A stretch of 64,000 nt of DNA from Bdellovibrionales bacterium (GCA_027317865.1 DAHVQG010000003.1:64001-128000), one strand, 5' to 3'. Shown: positions 44,599 to 53,317, counted from the stretch's first letter. Notes: generated by a model from the letters alone, not told the origin. Made by a program: numbers and translations.

Positions 44599-45495
44599 TT
44601 AGTTCAACAATTCGACTTTGTAGGCGCGGTAATCAGTGGTGTAGCCTCGGACGATATTTTCAGGTCCGGCAAGGGGTCGCATCAGTACGTAATAGTAGAG
44701 CCGTACGTATCGGCCTGTTGCCATCGTCTCAATAATAAAGTTAAACAGTGCGCGATCGGGAACTGCAATCTCGTTATATATGCCACCGCCGACACCTTGT
44801 TGCATCACAATTTCTCGGGCTTTTCGGATGACGTTATTAACCGAAGCTTTAACGACGCGGCCGACGTAATAGCCGGTCACAAGCCGAGGAATGCGGGCAA
44901 CAAGTGGAATCGGAGCAGTAAACGACGCACGACGCGGCAACAGTGTTGGGTCGACTAAATAAACTTTTTCTAAATAGTTGTCAGACAAAGTAAACGGAAT
45001 ATAGAAATACGATCTATAGTAAAGAACGACTTCCGAATCGCCGATGGATGCGAGTTGATTCAATAAATATTCATTTTCGCTGCTAAACGGCCAGGGGTTG
45101 ACCGTGACCGTGCACCGGCGCTCGGCATTTTGCAGTTCTACAGGATAATTGGGCCCGGACTTTAATTTACTTTTGGCGTCGTCAATACAATACTGTTCAA
45201 CATATCCCCCGGCTGTGCTGGCTTGGCCGACTTTTACCGAACCTTCTAGAGTTTGAATAATTCGACCGTTTCTGTGCACGCCGATCAACGTGCCAAGAAC
45301 GTAACCGGCCGAGTATTGCATCGGATCGAACGACCACCCGATTACGTGCAAATGCCGAGCGTCGCCGATAATTGTAGAACTATGAACAGTAGTTGAAGGC
45401 GTGGTGTCGGCCGCCAGGCACACGCCAGCTGTTAGAAAAAATGCGCTCAGCACCCCTATCAATATTGTAAGACCAGCGAGCGATGACCGTTTCAT
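44599..45495 (-). CDS. Exported protein with two tandem copies of an uncharacterised beta domain
   Basis: Signal peptide from MKRSS; YSAGYVLG...VVLYY and VTGYYVG...VRLYY repeats. Confidence 0.7.
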   Translation of the reverse strand: MKRSSLAGLTILIGVLSAFFLTAGVCLAADTTPSTTVHSSTIIGDARHLHVIGWSFDPMQYSAGYVLGTLIGVHRNGRIIQTLEGSVKVGQASTAGGYVEQYCIDDAKSKLKSGPNYPVELQNAERRCTVTVNPWPFSSENEYLLNQLASIGDSEVVLYYRSYFYIPFTLSDNYLEKVYLVDPTLLPRRASFTAPIPLVARIPRLVTGYYVGRVVKASVNNVIRKAREIVMQQGVGGGIYNEIAVPDRALFNFIIETMATGRYVRLYYYVLMRPLAGPENIVRGYTTDYRAYKVELLN

Positions 45496-45632: not shown

Positions 45633-45648
45633 TGGCATGACCGTTGCA
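45633..45648 (+). promoter_or_regulatory. Sigma54-type promoter of the four-gene operon
   Basis: TGGCATGACCGTTGCA, close match to TGGCAC-N5-TTGCA. Confidence 0.7.
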
Positions 45649-45729
45649 AAGAATGCTTCTCTGTTATGTAAAAAAAAATTTTAACAGTGCGCTCGGCAAA
45701 AAAAGTAACCAGAGCGGAGGAGAAAAATT

Positions 45730-47475
45730 ATGAAGAGCGAACGAATTCACAGACGAATGTTACCGACTGTCGTCGGCAGCATTTTGATTTGTTTATGCGG
45801 ATGTGCCCCACGGCACTCGCATTCGTCAAAAAGAAATGGGCCGGCTGCAGTAGCAAATAAAAATCATGCTACAGGATCGAAGGGGCCGAACTCCCGTGCT
45901 GGATCTTCCGCATTTTCAGGAGTTTCGCCAGCGGCCGCGCACACAAGTCGTAATGGCGGCTTAATCTCTGCTGCGGCTATCGGCGCTTCCAATGTAAATA
46001 ATTTAGGTGATGTCCCAAACGACGTCCCGCCAGCTACCGCAATCAACACCGAAGGCGGAAGGCTCCTCGTTGGATACTTAAAGGGTACGTTCTCTGGAGA
46101 GTCCGTCGTTGACGCTGTTTTTGACACTGAGAAACTCGTACCATATCGGCTAGCTGAGATTTCGGCCGCGATTTTAAAATTGCGTAGCGCCGGCCAGTTC
46201 ACGGCTCAAGACGAAGACAAAGTACAAATGCTTGAGACCGCTTTGAACAAGCGGCTGATCGGTACAATTGAGTATCACGACACTCTCGACCGTTGGATTA
46301 AATATTCAGTGGCAGCGGCGATTTCGATTCCGGCGACAATATATGCGCCAGAAATTATAGGAGCAGGCAAAGGTCTGCTTGAGTCGCCAGTTATTACCGC
46401 CCCTAAATCGTGGATCGTCCGGGCTTATGAAGGAACGTTGGCCCTTTTTAGGCGATTTGGTCGTAGCAAAGGTGCCGAAGCGGCTGGTGAAGCGGCCGCA
46501 GGAGAGGTTGCCACAGAGGCTACTGCGGTGGCTGAACAAAGAGCGGCCGAACAAGCGGCGGCAGAAGGTTTAAAACCCGGTGAGGTCAGGGAAGATCTTT
46601 CCGGCACAGTCGGCGAAGGCGGCCCAACCGAAGAAGAATTTCCGACGGTGGCTGGCGCTAAGACGGAAAGCGCAGCACAAGCTGGCCAAGCAGCTGAACC
46701 GGCTGCACAAGAAGAAGCTGCTGCAGAGAGTGAGTCTGCTGCTGCGGCAAAAAGTGAAAAACCGGGTCTTTATGCCCGAATTGTGGGTTCATATAAAACA
46801 AGATTTGGCCGCGTAACACCTGAACAAGTTGTGATCCGCGATATCAATCGCGCATTGAGTTCACCCGAATTAGCTCGCGGCTTTGAGGTCACAGCTATAC
46901 CTGAAGAACAACTCGATCAGGCAAAAGCTCTTACGTTTAGCCGTACGGGTATCCCTGGTTTTGCCATGAATCAAGGCGAAGGGAGCCGATTCCTAACCGT
47001 TCGAGTCGCAACCGGTGCCGGCTATAAATACTTTTACGTCAATGGCCGTGCAATTGAAATCTTAACCGAAAGTGGTGAGAAGCAGATTGTGCGTGGCCCT
47101 ACCATCATAAAAATTGCAGCTGACCGAATGAAAGGTTGGAGAGACGACACGGCCGGATTCTTCTCACGAGTCGGCGGCAGAACAAAGAATTTGGCTCTGC
47201 AAGCTAAAGACGCGGCCTTTAATAACCGTGTTTCTCAGTGGCTCTTGAGTCAAAGAGGCAAGCAGATCATTCAGCAATCCGTTGTTGGTGGTGCCACAGG
47301 TATGTTGACTCTGTGGGCTTTAAGTCCAATCAACACGCGCTATTTGACGGTTAATGAATATCTTCGGGCACTTTCTAAAGAAGGAATAAATTTAAATGAC
47401 TTCCCAGATGAATTGCGGACAGAGCTGCAGCAAGAGGCCAAAGTCCCGAATAAAGTGGCTCTGCCAACACACTAA
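45730..47475 (+). CDS. Hypothetical lipoprotein with Ala/Glu low-complexity linker and two hydrophobic segments
   Basis: GGAGGAG RBS, lipobox LCGC, YSVAAAISIPATIYA and VVGGATGMLTLWAL segments. Confidence 0.8.
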   Translation: MKSERIHRRMLPTVVGSILICLCGCAPRHSHSSKRNGPAAVANKNHATGSKGPNSRAGSSAFSGVSPAAAHTSRNGGLISAAAIGASNVNNLGDVPNDVPPATAINTEGGRLLVGYLKGTFSGESVVDAVFDTEKLVPYRLAEISAAILKLRSAGQFTAQDEDKVQMLETALNKRLIGTIEYHDTLDRWIKYSVAAAISIPATIYAPEIIGAGKGLLESPVITAPKSWIVRAYEGTLALFRRFGRSKGAEAAGEAAAGEVATEATAVAEQRAAEQAAAEGLKPGEVREDLSGTVGEGGPTEEEFPTVAGAKTESAAQAGQAAEPAAQEEAAAESESAAAAKSEKPGLYARIVGSYKTRFGRVTPEQVVIRDINRALSSPELARGFEVTAIPEEQLDQAKALTFSRTGIPGFAMNQGEGSRFLTVRVATGAGYKYFYVNGRAIEILTESGEKQIVRGPTIIKIAADRMKGWRDDTAGFFSRVGGRTKNLALQAKDAAFNNRVSQWLLSQRGKQIIQQSVVGGATGMLTLWALSPINTRYLTVNEYLRALSKEGINLNDFPDELRTELQQEAKVPNKVALPTH

Positions 47476-47494
47476 GCGAGGAGTCACGATACTT

Positions 47495-48574
47495 ATGGCG
47501 CTGGTGCTAGGAACACAAATCGCGTACGCGGGAGAGGCTGGAGAAATGCAAACGGATCGGCAAATTCAGATTCTCGAAACCTACGTAAATATCCGCGATG
47601 GTGTCGCACCAGCCGATAATGTCGTCCCCATGCTTCGCGCATTCAATCGATATCGAACTTCGTTCGCGAACTTCGAAAACGATGCGGTCGAATGGAGTTC
47701 AACGGCGAATTGCACCCGATATAAAAATCTCTACGATAAAATTGGCCAAGAGTTAGTGCAGTATTACGGATTGCTCCTCAATTCAAAAACTCTTGCGCCC
47801 GCGACACGAGAAAATGTGGAGGGTCGCCTTTACACACTTAAATTGTTTGAAATGGCGCTTTTCAGTTTAGCCGTGACAGGCAAAGAGGGCGGAATTTCGA
47901 TGATTGATCCGCTCGAAAAACATTATTGTGTGGTGAAAGGTCGAAAACAATGGTTAAGCGCCATGTCTCGCGCCCACCAAGACCTGCAAAGATTGCATGA
48001 AACCGTATTTGGTTATCGCAGCGCTATGGATTTTCGTAACGCATCCGATATCGTACAGCGGTTAAACGCAAAAATTGAACACCGCGGCCGCATTGAGAGA
48101 TACGCATATAATATTGCGGAATTCGGCCTGTCGATTTTAGTCTGGTTCAAAGGCGTGGCGCCGCTGCTCAGGCGCGCGCGTACTTCGATCGAATCGCCGC
48201 CACTTCGTGCGGCCACTACAATTGCCGCCGGTATTGCTTATACCCTGGCCTTTATGAAGCTCGATCAAGAGGCATATGCTCATTTCTCTTTTTTGCAGCC
48301 GAAACCGTCGCTGAAAGAAATGAGCCTTTTGCGGTGGAACGACCTGATGTCCAGAGGCGAAGAAGTGGTGAATTCGAAACTTGAGTCGACACCGCTTTAC
48401 TTTGCCTACCTGAAACTGACTGCCCTATTGGATCGAGAAACGGCATACAACTTTTTGCTCGAGCATCAAGAATTTTTGTCTGAGATGGAGACTCAATACG
48501 GCTCCATCAATGCGGCTCTGAATCATTTAAAGGAGGAACGTGAAAATGAGACGAACAATAAACGGGCAGGATAG
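47495..48574 (+). CDS. Exported helical protein with hydrophobic hairpin
   Basis: GAGGAG RBS, short signal (AYA-G), FGLSILVWF and TIAAGIAYTLAF segments; start uncertain. Confidence 0.75.
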   Translation: MALVLGTQIAYAGEAGEMQTDRQIQILETYVNIRDGVAPADNVVPMLRAFNRYRTSFANFENDAVEWSSTANCTRYKNLYDKIGQELVQYYGLLLNSKTLAPATRENVEGRLYTLKLFEMALFSLAVTGKEGGISMIDPLEKHYCVVKGRKQWLSAMSRAHQDLQRLHETVFGYRSAMDFRNASDIVQRLNAKIEHRGRIERYAYNIAEFGLSILVWFKGVAPLLRRARTSIESPPLRAATTIAAGIAYTLAFMKLDQEAYAHFSFLQPKPSLKEMSLLRWNDLMSRGEEVVNSKLESTPLYFAYLKLTALLDRETAYNFLLEHQEFLSEMETQYGSINAALNHLKEERENETNNKRAG

Positions 48575-49748
48575 AAAATGGTATCTTGCCGAAATCTTAG
48601 CGGCCGTAGCTGTAACCTGCGGTCTTGGCGCCGGGGCCACTGCGAAACCGGCAACACCTGTATTGGGTCCCGTTGAAGTACAGGAAGAAGTCGGACAGCG
48701 AGTTCAACAGCTCACACACGGGAATAAAGAATATGCCAAAGAGTTGGAGTACCGAATTCAGGATACCTTCGGCGTAACGGCCACGTGTCCGGATGAATTT
48801 TTCTCGACTCAGGCGAGAAATCTGGATTGCGTGCAAGGCTTGCAGAATCTTGAAATCGCGCTAACAAAATTGAGCCCCAATGCGCAAAGACTTACGCGTG
48901 AAATCGAGGTGAAAATCGGCGATGCGGGCGATTGGGGCGGGCTCACTTATACCGATCAAGAACTTGTCGTGCCCTTTCATGCCGATCCTAACGTAATGGC
49001 TGAGTTTATCGCAAAAGAGGTGAATCTTTTAAATAATGTTAGTTTCGATCAGGTGAGACAAGAGAACAACGTAATGGCCCGGAACATAGAGAGAAAATAT
49101 TTTATTCTCGTTAGTCCGGCTCCCGATCTCCAGCCGATCGTGTATCATGACGGTCTTGAACGGTTGAATTTTGCTTTGGCCACTTTGTTTGTCAAAGTGA
49201 AACCCAGTCCCGAACAAGCCGCTAAACTTGGATTCGACCGGGTGATACTCGGCAACGAAGATCGCGGCCTGTATCAAAACGATGGTGAACTGCGGATTAA
49301 TCTCGATGCGACGGATAGTCCAGTCGATATGCAAATTCGTTTAATTAGCCAAATTCGCCGACCGGTAAAACATTGGTATGAGCACTTCAATTGGAACCAC
49401 CTAGGCACTTATACTTGGGCACAAGTCAGCGAATTTCGTCTGGCCAGAGAGCGCGCTCGGCAAGCTCTTGAGTGGTTGGATGAAAACGTACCGGAACTGC
49501 ATGTGACCTGTAACTTGAATAATAAAGCCCATAACTCCATCGATATGACTGAATGTGAGCAAGGCGTAACCACGATTGCAAGGGCATTTAAGCGTTATCA
49601 TTTACAAGATAAAACCGTGCCGTTTCAAAATTTGATTGTCGGTTCGCTTTGGATTAGCTCCGCTGTCCCGCAGAGATATCGCAATGCTGTATTGATGGAT
49701 CATGCGGCAAGTGAAAAAACAGTTTATAAACTCATCACTCAGAAGTGA
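48546..49748 (+). CDS. Exported protein with three internal ~100 aa repeats
   Basis: AGGAGG RBS, signal (ATA-K), repeats CVQGLQNL / YHDGLERL / CEQGVTTI. Confidence 0.78.
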   Translation: MRRTINGQDRKWYLAEILAAVAVTCGLGAGATAKPATPVLGPVEVQEEVGQRVQQLTHGNKEYAKELEYRIQDTFGVTATCPDEFFSTQARNLDCVQGLQNLEIALTKLSPNAQRLTREIEVKIGDAGDWGGLTYTDQELVVPFHADPNVMAEFIAKEVNLLNNVSFDQVRQENNVMARNIERKYFILVSPAPDLQPIVYHDGLERLNFALATLFVKVKPSPEQAAKLGFDRVILGNEDRGLYQNDGELRINLDATDSPVDMQIRLISQIRRPVKHWYEHFNWNHLGTYTWAQVSEFRLARERARQALEWLDENVPELHVTCNLNNKAHNSIDMTECEQGVTTIARAFKRYHLQDKTVPFQNLIVGSLWISSAVPQRYRNAVLMDHAASEKTVYKLITQK

Positions 49749-49766
49749 AAATGATAAGAAGTGACG

Positions 49767-51785
49767 ATGGCAAAAAAACTAATCTGTCTGCTCGTTTGCA
49801 TGGCAATGATAGACGGGCAGATGGCATACGGCCTTCGGTTACGGTGGTGGAAGCGACGCGCGTCGACGGAATGCGCGTCTCTTTTGGCTCCTGATATTCG
49901 CGAACCGACGCTCAATCAGCAACAAGCGCTCGCGACGGTATTCAACGACGCTTCAAAACTCGTGGAGCAGATGGGTCAAACAAAAGACCCTCCAGCATGG
50001 TACCGTGTGCTTAAAGATTATATTCTCCCGTACCGGCAAACTAAATCTAATCAGTTGGCCGTTGCCTTGGTTGGCCCGGCTAATTCGGGCAAGTCAACTA
50101 TTATCAATTCGCTAGCGGCATATTTTCAAAGTCCGACCGACATATCAAGGTCTGGCTTTGCCGAGCTGTCGACTTCGCGACCTGTAATCTTAGTCAATCC
50201 GGCGTTAGAAAAATCGTCATTACTTACTAATCGATTTGGCCCGGTAGTTCCATGGCAAACTTTGATGATGACCTCACAGGAGGGTTTACCGGTTGTCTAT
50301 CCGCTTAAGAATTTTTATAAAAACTTGATTTTAATAGATGTTCCATCCTCCGACAGCGATCCGCTTCGAACAATTGCCGACAAAGCTGTGCGATGGGCCG
50401 ACATATTAGCGTACACCTTTACGTACACGAGCTATCGAAATGATATCAATTTGCAACAGCTTCGCGACACCTTTGCGCGAATTGGCCAAAAACCAGTAAT
50501 ATTAATTTACCGGGCTCCCGCATCGATGCCAAAGCGGGATGCGGACGCCCATTTTAAAACCGTCACGCAAGCGATGTTCCCGAACGCAACAATTAATCCA
50601 GATACGGGCTTACCAACATTGATAAAAGGCGTCTACATTCTTCTTGAATCGGACAAGGTTGGTGCAGGATACGCGATTCCTGTTCTTAAGCCATACGGAA
50701 AAGCGGGAAAGAAATTGTGGGATGTTTTGCAAAATTATGATTCTGCTCCGTTGCCGGCAAGGCGGCAGTCCCTTCAAAACAATTTTACGTTTGTGGTAAA
50801 CGGCATTAATAAGGACATTATTAATCTGCAGCGCGAACAAGCCGAGCGAAAAGTGACTGATGAAGCATTTCAGTTACTGATGAAAGCCTCAGTTGACCGC
50901 ATGCTCAATATGTTCCCATATGATCGATTGGCTTCGGATTTACAAGAAATTTGGATTGGGCGACATCAAGGTATACATCAGTGGGCGCGATGGTTGGCGC
51001 ATCCGTTGCAGATGGCTCGTGGGCACAAAACCGTCCTTGAAATCGGTGAAATTGACCGCGATCGTATTGAATATTTTTTGGACAGCGCAGTTGAACAAAT
51101 TGTGAACGCCACATCACTAGCGGCTTCGCGCCGAATGATGAAATTTCCTTTAAAACTAAAGGGCGTAGAGAGGCTTCTTAAGTCTGTAGACGAGATGCAC
51201 AAGCGCTTTGGAATACCTGAAAAGCAAACGCCAAATTATAAAATTAAAAATGAAACTGTGGAATTTTATTTACCTGATACTCCGAAAGTCAACTCAATGC
51301 TCAACAGTTATTTACATCAGGATTGGGACAACATAAAAGTAGAAATTAAGAAAGCAGCTCTCGAAACCGTACTTCGTCTGACTTATACGATTCAAGCAGA
51401 ATTAGATAGCGTTGTGGGTAGAACAAGAATGCGGCATCGGTTAAAAAAAATGTTCTATTCAGGAGGAGCAGTCGCCCCGGCGGTTTTTTTAACCTTTTAT
51501 ATATTTTTTAGCGGCGTCGCAAGTCTTAAGGCTTTATTCGGTGCCTTTGCGGTTATGGTGAATGCGAGAATTTTAACGTATTTCGATGAACGCACGCTAA
51601 AACAAGATTTGCGCGAAATGGTTGCCAATTGGTTTAACGAACGACAATCGCCGTTTTTCATTGATCAACTCAATCATTTTGCAAGATTTGATCCGAAATC
51701 CGAACACGTTCCAGCTCTAAAAGAGTTTGGCCGGCTCCGGGCGGCGACTCGGGTTTTGCGCGAACATCCACCACAATGGAATTGA
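49767..51785 (+). CDS. Dynamin-like P-loop GTPase with N-terminal signal peptide and C-terminal TM hairpin
   Basis: G1 GPANSGKST, G2 STSRP, G3-like LIDVPSSDS, helical stalk, TM hairpin AVFLTFYIFFSG...LFGAFAVMV. Confidence 0.75.
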   Translation: MAKKLICLLVCMAMIDGQMAYGLRLRWWKRRASTECASLLAPDIREPTLNQQQALATVFNDASKLVEQMGQTKDPPAWYRVLKDYILPYRQTKSNQLAVALVGPANSGKSTIINSLAAYFQSPTDISRSGFAELSTSRPVILVNPALEKSSLLTNRFGPVVPWQTLMMTSQEGLPVVYPLKNFYKNLILIDVPSSDSDPLRTIADKAVRWADILAYTFTYTSYRNDINLQQLRDTFARIGQKPVILIYRAPASMPKRDADAHFKTVTQAMFPNATINPDTGLPTLIKGVYILLESDKVGAGYAIPVLKPYGKAGKKLWDVLQNYDSAPLPARRQSLQNNFTFVVNGINKDIINLQREQAERKVTDEAFQLLMKASVDRMLNMFPYDRLASDLQEIWIGRHQGIHQWARWLAHPLQMARGHKTVLEIGEIDRDRIEYFLDSAVEQIVNATSLAASRRMMKFPLKLKGVERLLKSVDEMHKRFGIPEKQTPNYKIKNETVEFYLPDTPKVNSMLNSYLHQDWDNIKVEIKKAALETVLRLTYTIQAELDSVVGRTRMRHRLKKMFYSGGAVAPAVFLTFYIFFSGVASLKALFGAFAVMVNARILTYFDERTLKQDLREMVANWFNERQSPFFIDQLNHFARFDPKSEHVPALKEFGRLRAATRVLREHPPQWN

Positions 51786-51814: not shown

Positions 51815-52387
51815 CTACAAGTTCACAGGTATACTCAAACACGCGCCATACATTTTGCTAGTGACGTTTGCTGATAACGGGCCATTCGAGTCTTTGGTAT
51901 ATGTGGCGTCGATATATTCGAAATTGATCGCGATAAGCGGGACAAGGTGAAAGCCGATACCAATTTTATAATCTGTGCCGGAGTAAGTGTCTTCATAACC
52001 AACTCGCGTTTGTTTTAAGCTCGAAGCGATGCCGTAACCAAAGTACATTCGCATGAGTGGGCCGTCGTAACCGACAAATGCCCCAACCGACGTTGGCGTT
52101 TCGCTGTCGTTTGGAGAGTATTGATCCGTCCAAGACCCTGACATGGCATCGCCACCGAGCATGAATCCCATGGACTCAACTCCGACGCGGGCACCGTACG
52201 TCGCGCCGCTTTGGTGTGCGGAACATGTTGTACAATTTGAACTTTTGCTCCACTGCCCAGAATCGTATCCCACATAGGGCTCAAGTAAAAGACCGGCATG
52301 GGCCGTTTGCGAATTAAAAAATAGACCCAGCATTGCTACTGTGGCACAAATCGTTGCAATTAAAGGAGCCCTTCGCGTGCAATCCAT
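51815..52387 (-). CDS. Small outer-membrane beta-barrel protein
   Basis: Signal AHA-G, LLLEPYVGY first strand, ~8 amphipathic strands. Confidence 0.8.
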   Translation of the reverse strand: MDCTRRAPLIATICATVAMLGLFFNSQTAHAGLLLEPYVGYDSGQWSKSSNCTTCSAHQSGATYGARVGVESMGFMLGGDAMSGSWTDQYSPNDSETPTSVGAFVGYDGPLMRMYFGYGIASSLKQTRVGYEDTYSGTDYKIGIGFHLVPLIAINFEYIDATYTKDSNGPLSANVTSKMYGACLSIPVNL

Positions 52388-53193
52388 GCATTAACTTTAG
52401 CAGGTAATCTCTTCTGAAGGGAAGGCTCCGTGCACAAAAAACTGCCGAGTTCGGCAAAATATTCGTCGATATCCGTCATTGAATAAATTGACGGAAAATG
52501 GTGCGCAATGGACCACTTTAAATCGAATGCAAAGGCCCTTTCAGGACTTAAGCCATACAGTTGGTTATATTGGTTAAATAACGAATAATACTCTTTTACC
52601 GTAATGGGACTAGGAGGGTCAGCAGGGTAACCGGACGCCGAATCCCAACCAAAACCCCAATTAAGCGCCTTTGCAAGCGAGGTCCAGAACGGCCGTGACT
52701 TGTCATCGTAATTTCGGGCGTAAGCGTATTGATGATAAAGTTCATGTATTAAGGCATGCACACCGACAGTCGTAGAATGAAATCGAAGCGGCCCCTCTGT
52801 GAAATAATCTTTGGCCAGATAAATAACGTAACCGTGGTATTGCGCCGAGGCGCCGAGCTCAGATGAACTGTCAACTAGCACCAAGCGAATTACATGCTGC
52901 TTTTTTGTCAGAAGCATATTCTGTAAAGGTGCAATATGTTGCGCTTTTGCGATTAATCGAAATTCTTTAAGGACGAACGCTTTCTTTTTTGGAGTCCAAT
53001 TGTAATAGGTAATTTCACCGGGCCCGTCGCAAAAGTTATTATTTTGCCAATGGCCGTTACAGTAAGCGGCATTTAAAAATTCGATCGGAAGGCGCCATCC
53101 AGGCACATAAGTAAGCGGTGTAGCGCGAGAAGCCTGCGAATATCCTATGAGACTCGTGGCGGCAAGTAGCAGAACACCTAAAAGAAATTTCAT
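52360..53193 (-). CDS. Secreted zinc metallopeptidase-like protein
   Basis: Signal peptide, HELYH and downstream YS...EYFAE gluzincin-like motifs. Confidence 0.7.
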   Translation of the reverse strand: MKFLLGVLLLAATSLIGYSQASRATPLTYVPGWRLPIEFLNAAYCNGHWQNNNFCDGPGEITYYNWTPKKKAFVLKEFRLIAKAQHIAPLQNMLLTKKQHVIRLVLVDSSSELGASAQYHGYVIYLAKDYFTEGPLRFHSTTVGVHALIHELYHQYAYARNYDDKSRPFWTSLAKALNWGFGWDSASGYPADPPSPITVKEYYSLFNQYNQLYGLSPERAFAFDLKWSIAHHFPSIYSMTDIDEYFAELGSFLCTEPSLQKRLPAKVNAWIAREGLL

Positions 53194-53317
53194 TTGATCG
53201 CCCCCCATTACTATGGCCGAAAAATTCAGAAACGACAGGGAGGTTATTTACCCGATTAAGCTCAAAATGTCAGCGATCGCGGTCGGCATTGGTAAATATG
53301 ACAATTACAATTCAAAC

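Follow-up and report, generated by a model that had tools for sequence, protein, structure and literature searches.

This report concerns a gene cluster at positions 45,633 to 51,785 of a 64,000-nucleotide stretch of DNA from a bacterium of the predatory lineage Bdellovibrionales (GCA_027317865.1 DAHVQG010000003.1:64001-128000; "the window" below means this whole stretch), in which a sigma-54 promoter element is followed by four genes, here called A, B, C and D, with a further gene, E, diverging from them. The last gene of the series encodes a dynamin-like protein that carries an export signal and, judging from its own sequence features and those of its relatives, probably works outside the cytoplasm. 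What appears to be new is the combination of a signal-bearing dynamin-like clade with four unannotated families of putatively exported proteins (A, B, C and E). We propose that sigma-54 controls an operon in which an envelope module is joined by an exported, periplasm-facing D that would remodel membranes—a reading to which, taken as a whole, we give a probability of roughly 0.5.

Fold, export signals and nucleotide site of D

An earlier note on this DNA had called D a dynamin-like GTPase. The first half of that description is carried by the fold of the protein, not by domain searches on D itself, for which the Pfam family Dynamin_N scored 16 bits, below its cut-off of 27, and matched residues 101-119, i.e., the P-loop, only. 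The same family was matched by 29 of 44 aligned relatives of D, with E values up to 0.01 and a best value of 1.2e-9. Among 1.84 billion representatives searched exhaustively with HMMER there were 101 relatives, mostly of ~660 amino acids (aa), and this genome holds one D-family gene. The AlphaFold2 (AF2) model of D had a predicted local distance difference test score (pLDDT) of 88.3 and a predicted template modeling score (pTM) of 0.79. With this model as the query, Foldseek placed BDLP (2j69) first (E 1.6e-10, ~700 columns) and ranked Drp1, Cj-DLP, IniA, dynamin and LeoA below it. VIA-align returned a Z of 20.5 for truncated Fzo1 (298 residues aligned at a root-mean-square deviation, rmsd, of 4.1) and 19.1 for mitofusin-1 (Mfn1), with generic GTPases at about 13. 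The Fzo1 and Mfn1 matches span residues 52-672 of D, encompassing the G domain and the helical neck and trunk bundles. Farther along the chain, two hydrophobic arms of 19 residues each (564-582 and 587-605) flank the turn of a helical hairpin, the helices of which run from 555 to 582 and from 587 to 639 in the AF2 model; as modeled, this hairpin resembles the BDLP paddle or the membrane hairpin of mitofusin. We therefore regard it as very probable, on the strength of these models, that D has a dynamin-like fold of the mitofusin/BDLP class.

The N-terminus of D carries a Sec-type signal, MAKKLICLLVCMAMIDGQMAYG. Here and for the other products of the cluster, signals were judged by eye, with hydropathy scripts and from comparative evidence across homologues. 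In a FastTree phylogeny from which the N-terminal region had been left out (a method less reliable for long branches), the signal-bearing homologues of D formed one clade of 27 rows with a support of 96, beside a signal-less sister clade of 41 rows. Signals are present in 24 of the 27 rows of the exported clade; the three remaining rows stem from gene calls that are truncated or run into a contig end, and for one of them the signal is present in its genome. Across the clade, positively charged n-regions precede h-regions of only ~11 residues, interrupted by D, N, Q or H, and these are followed by AxA-type sites in 24/24 full-length members. The two clades also differ in their Cys content between the P-loop and the end of the protein, with means of 0.30 residues per protein in the exported clade vs 4.83 in the signal-less one (Mann-Whitney p 4e-12, computed on rows that are related to one another). 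Large open reading frames (ORFs) of the window contain 1.0% Cys, a frequency at which zero Cys in 570 residues would have a probability of ~0.003. A single Cys is found 2-15 residues past the predicted cleavage site in 24/24 full-length members of the exported clade—in D, Cys36 counted from ATG 49767, at window positions 49872-49874—and this residue might serve as an intermolecular disulfide or modification site. It often follows a basic-Pro stretch, has no lipobox around it and is the only Cys in most of the mature proteins. A gene following a stand-alone D homologue in another genome (G055 L041:9866-10687) likewise encodes a signal and then a close Cys (FAFADCEH), in the manner of the D clade. 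Taken together, these sequence signatures make the export of D likely.

The nucleotide site is retained in part. The G1 P-loop of D reads GPANSGKST; G103, G108 and K109 are kept in 27/27 members of the exported clade and S110 in 26/27 (Thr in the other), and the equivalents of all four residues are kept in 41/41 rows of the sister clade. Switch-I T136, assigned by alignment, and D191 are both present in 27/27 members of the exported clade. The G3 motif DxxG is replaced in D by D191-V-P-S, with the Asp kept and the Gly lost; the exported clade shows variants of the form D-T/S-P-[D/A/S], and in the signal-less sister clade 41/41 rows read DTPD. At the strand where a G4 motif [NT]KxD would lie, D has LIYRAP, and [YF]-[RNQ] is found there family-wide, in both clades. 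Since G3 takes the form D-T/V-P-[D/S/A] and NKxD is missing from G4, the second half of the earlier description is not established, and D is named here an NTPase rather than a GTPase. The sister clade itself comprises ~41 representative clusters of ~660-aa cytoplasmic dynamin-like proteins, unnamed in the sources checked, with a P-loop of the AICGGGNSGKS type (Cys in 26/41) and a hydrophobic C-terminal hairpin common to both clades.

Promoter, gene layout and partner proteins

The cluster is preceded by a predicted sigma-54 promoter, TGGCATGACCGTTGCA, with GG at -24, GC at -12 and canonical spacing between them (TGGCAC-N5-TTGCA). Its position predicts a transcription start at about 45658-45660; the ATG of gene A follows 97 nt downstream of the element, with a ribosome-binding site (GGAGGAG) at ~45717-45723. 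The pattern TGGCAYN5TTGCW has its sole match in the window at this element, against 0.23 matches expected, and 22 of 100 shuffles of the window contain at least one match, so that a single motif match alone is not significant. The motif becomes credible through its conservation and its genomic setting. In two congeneric genomes, the orthologous loci carry TGGCATGACCGTTGCA and TGGCATGGCCGTTGCA; the element forms an island of identity amid a diverged spacer across three congeneric genomes, and a second genus (G362) carries a variant, TGGCATATCCATTGCT, 86 nt upstream of A. Genome-wide, the pattern has 21 matches vs 5 for the reversed control; the genome holds 15 PF00158 matches above 180 bits, indicative of bacterial enhancer-binding proteins (bEBPs), and a match to rpoN (TIGR02395, 203 bits, G000:C22:3-878) that covers positions 1-259 of 434. 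This rpoN match is cut at the end of contig C22, which explains why the genome search found no sigma-54 DNA-binding domain. The conservation at the three congeneric loci, together with the genome-wide counts, bears out the sigma-54 promoter that had been claimed for the cluster. Ahead of more distant modules, an element read by eye as TGGCACATCAAATGCA was found in G651, and a copy with spacing one base over-long in G604. The PF00158 search of the genome found no bEBP gene adjoining the operon, and sites resembling sigma-70 promoters or terminators were no commoner inside the operon than in shuffles.

The genes downstream of the promoter (Table 1) are separated by gaps of at most 19 nt or overlap. 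B either overlaps A by 80 nt (ATG 47396) or begins 19 nt past it (ATG 47495, preceded by GAGGAG), C overlaps B by 29 nt, and D begins 18 nt after C. The start of B is ambiguous: the first ATG falls within A, 80 nt short of its 3' end (47396-47475), in a frame that is open and basic in 3/3 genus genomes, and database gene calls place the start at the later Met. For C, ATG 48546 is the likelier start, 8 nt past AAAGGAGGA. We consider it highly likely that A-B-C-D is a real operon. The coordinates confirm the tightly packed, same-strand layout described earlier, and the export signals ascribed to all four products are likewise corroborated by sequence features and by conservation in homologues—tripartite n-h-c signals in B, C and D that are kept in orthologues, and a lipobox in A. 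The additional hydrophobic segments reported for three of the products were found as well, in A (194-212), B (240-258 and ~270-290) and D (564-605).

Table 1. Promoter element and genes of the cluster, in window coordinates
Feature	Coordinates	Strand	Basis
Sigma-54 (-24/-12) promoter element TGGCATGACCGTTGCA (predicted)	45633-45648	+	Motif match and conservation at orthologous loci
A, 581-aa lipoprotein (predicted)	45730-47475	+	Lipobox L-C-G-C, Cys25
B, 359-392 aa	47396 (or ATG 47495)-48574	+	Signal-like N-terminus
C, 400-aa putatively exported soluble protein	48546-49748 (longer frame from 48540)	+	Signal-like N-terminus
D, 672-aa dynamin-like P-loop NTPase, predicted mitofusin/BDLP fold	49767-51785 (longer frame from 49761)	+	Fold
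E, 298-aa putatively exported protein	44599-45495	-	Likely start MKRSS at 45495

The N-terminus of A carries MKSERIHRRMLPTVVGSILICLCGC, and Met1 and the lipobox Cys are its sole invariant residues across 9 homologues; the protein has two conserved domains with low-complexity, Ala/Glu/Pro-rich linkers between them, and a further hydrophobic segment at ~525-545. B has two invariant Cys besides its two hydrophobic helices, and C has four, arranged as two C-x13-15-C-x-x-G-L pairs. E, also with two invariant Cys, is divergent from A-B-C-D in this window; a homologue lies downstream of A-B-C and co-directional with it in three other genomes, which indicates that E belongs to the module. In one genome (G114) a single ORF of 729 aa (L073:7362-9551, minus strand) encodes homologues of both B and C, with B corresponding to residues 88-387 and the C-like part starting at ~416. 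This fusion argues that B and C act together, and it gives a hint that the two proteins interact. A complex prediction for D (44-672) with C (36-400) came back with a score of 0.00 and no verdict.

Searches with A, B, C, E and their distant homologues yielded nothing above cut-off in Pfam, NCBIfam or PADLOC, and comparison of the four profiles with PDB profiles gave noise only. Profile comparison found no relatives of B, and the ESM Atlas no usable match for it; word-based searches recovered only 5 relatives for C and, for B and the B profile, 4 each. For C, the ESM Atlas returned scores of at most 0.85, led by zincin-like entries. The structure model of C had a pLDDT of 68.6, and its best matches, none of them convincing, were TCAIM in Foldseek (E 5.6e-6, but at an rmsd of 25) and a VIA-align match of Z 8.4 at an rmsd of 19, with zincin-like subdomains reaching Z values of 5-6.5. 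A peptidase function for C was rejected, the sole HxxEH-like string in the protein, HWYEH, not being conserved. The idea that A, B and C might be dynamin stalks without a GTPase domain was also discarded at the sequence level, hhalign giving probabilities of at most 0.6% against the D family.

Two neighboring genes deserve mention. Beyond D, a minus-strand gene (52360-53208) encodes a putatively exported protein of 282 aa that has an HExxH string (HELYH) and no Pfam match, and may be a metallopeptidase; it overlaps the start of a gene for an outer-membrane protein (OMP) β-barrel at 51815-52387 (PF13505, E 6e-7).

Distribution and proposed function of the cluster

Within the genus, G005 and G006 share the complete A-B-C-D set and its divergent E with this genome (G000) at 45-65% identity, and A-B-C-D recurs with overlapping genes in a genome of another genus (G362) at ~27-31% identity. 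Co-occurrence in other genomes, the lack of which would have refuted the earlier reading, is therefore seen for the whole series in four genomes of two genera. Across the order, D was found in 7 of 384 genomes (3 of the 7 genus genomes) and the B family in 10 of 379. D and the module occur together in five genomes and are adjacent in four; in the fifth, G055, D is unlinked. The order A-B-C-E without an adjoining D was observed in G651, G114 and G055, and A-B-C only in G604 and G030; two further genomes, G328 and G274, have D alone, in two copies each. The frequency of diverged A-B-C modules without D, together with stand-alone D genes, suggests that the envelope module is the older part and that D joined it later. 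As far as these genomes allow reconstruction, A-B-C, usually with E, is a separate module, to which D would have been added and with which it was then kept across two genera. The four-gene unit originally described thus stands as regards gene order and linkage; it is composite, it left out E, and D also occurs by itself. In G004 only the RNase H neighbor of the locus is retained, which left no insertion site that could be cleanly delimited; scans of the genome_contigs and metagenome_contigs collections with the queries P0004, A4 and A9 gave no match. Directly upstream of A-B-C in G604 lies a gene for a 733-aa lipoprotein (L064:12572-14773, minus strand) with a match to the murein endopeptidase family Peptidase_M74 (E 1.3e-7).

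The same pattern bears on whether D and its neighbors are functionally linked at all. D could have been inserted downstream of A-B-C by chance and share little more than a promoter with it, as might be surmised from the modules, with or without E, that lack D (G651, G114, G030, G604 and G605) and from D standing alone in G328, G274 and G055; yet gene order and near-abutting or overlapping genes are kept between two genera at 27-31% identity, G055 has D as well as the module, though unlinked, and the module is found in 5 of the 7 D genomes vs only 10 of 379 genomes overall, which makes a chance neighborhood unlikely.

In the mechanism that we propose, the operon would stay silent until a bEBP activator fires, whereupon sigma-54 would switch on A-B-C-D. 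All four products would cross the inner membrane and be targeted to the envelope, where A (a lipoprotein), B (membrane-embedded and disulfide-bonded) and C (periplasmic, with two disulfides) would represent the pre-existing module, probably forming a complex with E. D would lose its signal by cleavage and end up facing the periplasm, with the hydrophobic hairpin at its stalk tip as the anchor in a membrane. From this position it might act on membranes in the manner of mitofusin and BDLP, by tethering, bending or fusing them. The membranes concerned could be inner and outer membrane, those involved in vesicle budding or repair, or predator and prey envelopes. The nucleotide could come from prey-derived nucleoside triphosphates (NTPs) that reach the periplasm, or D might act in a nucleotide-independent way. 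Membrane remodeling by D on the periplasmic face is the more tentative part of this scheme, and we hold it to be possible rather than probable.

Several observations weigh against this reading. Four of the 7 genus genomes, which are 78-97% complete, lack the cluster; 5 of the 10 genomes with A-B-C have no D, and in 2 of the 7 with D no A-B-C was detected, so that a functional coupling is not obligatory. The related genomes are also few and kin—three genera for D together with the module—and counts of co-occurrence accordingly overstate their independence. The stretch was found in four mine-drainage DNA sequencing runs of one study, and among the runs searched no RNA sequencing run holding it was listed. 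Switch II is relaxed in the exported clade, with Gly198 in 9/27 members vs DTPDFDTG in at least 38 of 41 rows of the sister clade; with the G4 NKxD absent in addition, GTP hydrolysis by D is not assured. Moreover, the periplasm is held to lack nucleotides, as stated in a passage of PMC4159319, which sits uneasily with an invariant P-loop. Finally, the predicted mature N-terminus of D is strongly basic, LRLRWWKRR, a feature that disfavors Sec export and, by the positive-inside rule, fits an anchor that faces the cytoplasm.

This last point leads to a different topology, in which the N-terminal helix of D would be an uncleaved anchor (N-out, C-in) and D a conventional bacterial dynamin at the cytoplasmic face of the inner membrane, engaged in repair or stress response and merely co-transcribed with A-B-C. 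Besides the basic stretch directly after the hydrophobic segment, the invariance of the P-loop, Thr and Asp, which implies access to nucleotides, would suit such a protein, as would the existence of a signal-less sister clade with the same hairpin, of similar hydrophobicity (median KD19 1.73 vs 1.61). We judge this topology improbable given the short and interrupted h-regions, the uniform AxA sites, the positive n-regions at the N-termini, the near absence of Cys and operon partners that all appear to be exported.

D might, on the other hand, be directed at prey—an effector that remodels or breaches prey membranes with prey GTP or ATP, with A-B-C-E serving for delivery or docking. The relatives are Bdellovibrionales, the nucleotide site is conserved despite export, and the family is rare and patchily distributed, which is often the case for accessory genes of predation. 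Yet library scans recognized no secretion-system genes in the cluster, the hydrophobic hairpin (KD19 1.88) should stop transfer in the inner membrane of the producer, these uncultured organisms are not known to prey, and the search of the order turned up no D in family f10, for which it covered 182 genomes; we consider a prey-directed D doubtful. Action on prey, like the pore formation that the earlier note also raised, is speculative.

The preferred, periplasm-facing arrangement can be carried one step further. Bdellovibrionales may possess a clade of Sec-exported, mitofusin-like NTPases that are powered by prey nucleotides and, during predation, work with A-B-C-E on the envelope membranes to fuse or seal them or make them bud. 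We regard this extension as rather unlikely. If it is true, such proteins would correspond in topology to OPA1/Mgm1 and would supply the genetic proof, missing so far, of bacterial dynamins able to act outside the cytoplasm.

Comparison with known dynamin-like systems

As the earlier note had remarked, no system of this layout appears to have been described: Pfam, NCBIfam and PADLOC gave none, and full-text literature searches found no account of a signal-bearing bacterial dynamin-like protein (DLP), or of one in Bdellovibrio. Bacterial DLPs are treated as cytoplasmic, and a clade with Sec signals would be a clean and testable exception. If the exception is real, dynamin-type machines could act from outside the cytoplasmic membrane, where vesicle budding or the fusion of two envelopes would need to be driven. 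This raises the question of which ligand the invariant P-loop binds in a compartment thought to be free of NTPs.

The best fold matches of D are the minimal GTPase domain of mitofusin/Fzo1 (9kfe, 5yew) and BDLP1 of Nostoc (2j69). Like these, D is modeled with a large G domain seated on a bundle of N- and C-terminal helices, and with a long helical stalk bearing a hydrophobic hairpin or paddle. In contrast to them, D has a Sec-type signal, depletion of Cys and apparently exported partners; its G3 reads D-V/T-P-S/D/A instead of DxxG, NKxD is missing, and sequence identity amounts to 12-13%.

A second group comprises the paired DLP operons Cj-DLP1/2, DynA and IniA/IniC, in which, as is proposed for the D locus, an operon encodes a DLP that tethers membranes (PMC6104087). 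These are pairs of cytoplasmic DLPs, whereas the D locus has one D-family gene beside a predicted lipoprotein and exported, unannotated proteins.

The nearest precedent for D is LeoA, of the LeoABC system of enterotoxigenic E. coli, a dynamin-like protein placed in the periplasm by fractionation. According to passages of PMC4159319, it is reported as periplasmic and tied to vesicle release, and its authors term that location unexpected, there being no nucleotides there. The same passages give the Leo proteins no signal sequence, unlike the D clade. Leo is built around a pair of DLPs, and the D locus around one DLP, accompanied by three or four proteins that are not DLPs. Of the PADLOC profiles LeoA, LeoBC and LeoC, the matches to D were weak and confined to the surroundings of the P-loop (E 3e-4 for LeoA and 1e-3 for LeoBC, reaching 5e-3 overall).

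Finally, the placement proposed for D resembles that of Mgm1/OPA1, the dynamin of the mitochondrial inner membrane that faces the intermembrane space, an analogy that passages of PMC4159319 draw for LeoA. D differs from it in a fold match weaker than that to mitofusin, OPA1 and Mgm1 ranking lower in both Foldseek and VIA-align, and in its anchor: Mgm1 is held by an N-terminal transmembrane segment, and D would be held by a hairpin near its C-terminus. Homology was seen at the level of the superfamily only. Mgm1/OPA1 is, as D would be, a DLP imported across a membrane into a space equivalent to the periplasm and anchored there in the inner membrane.

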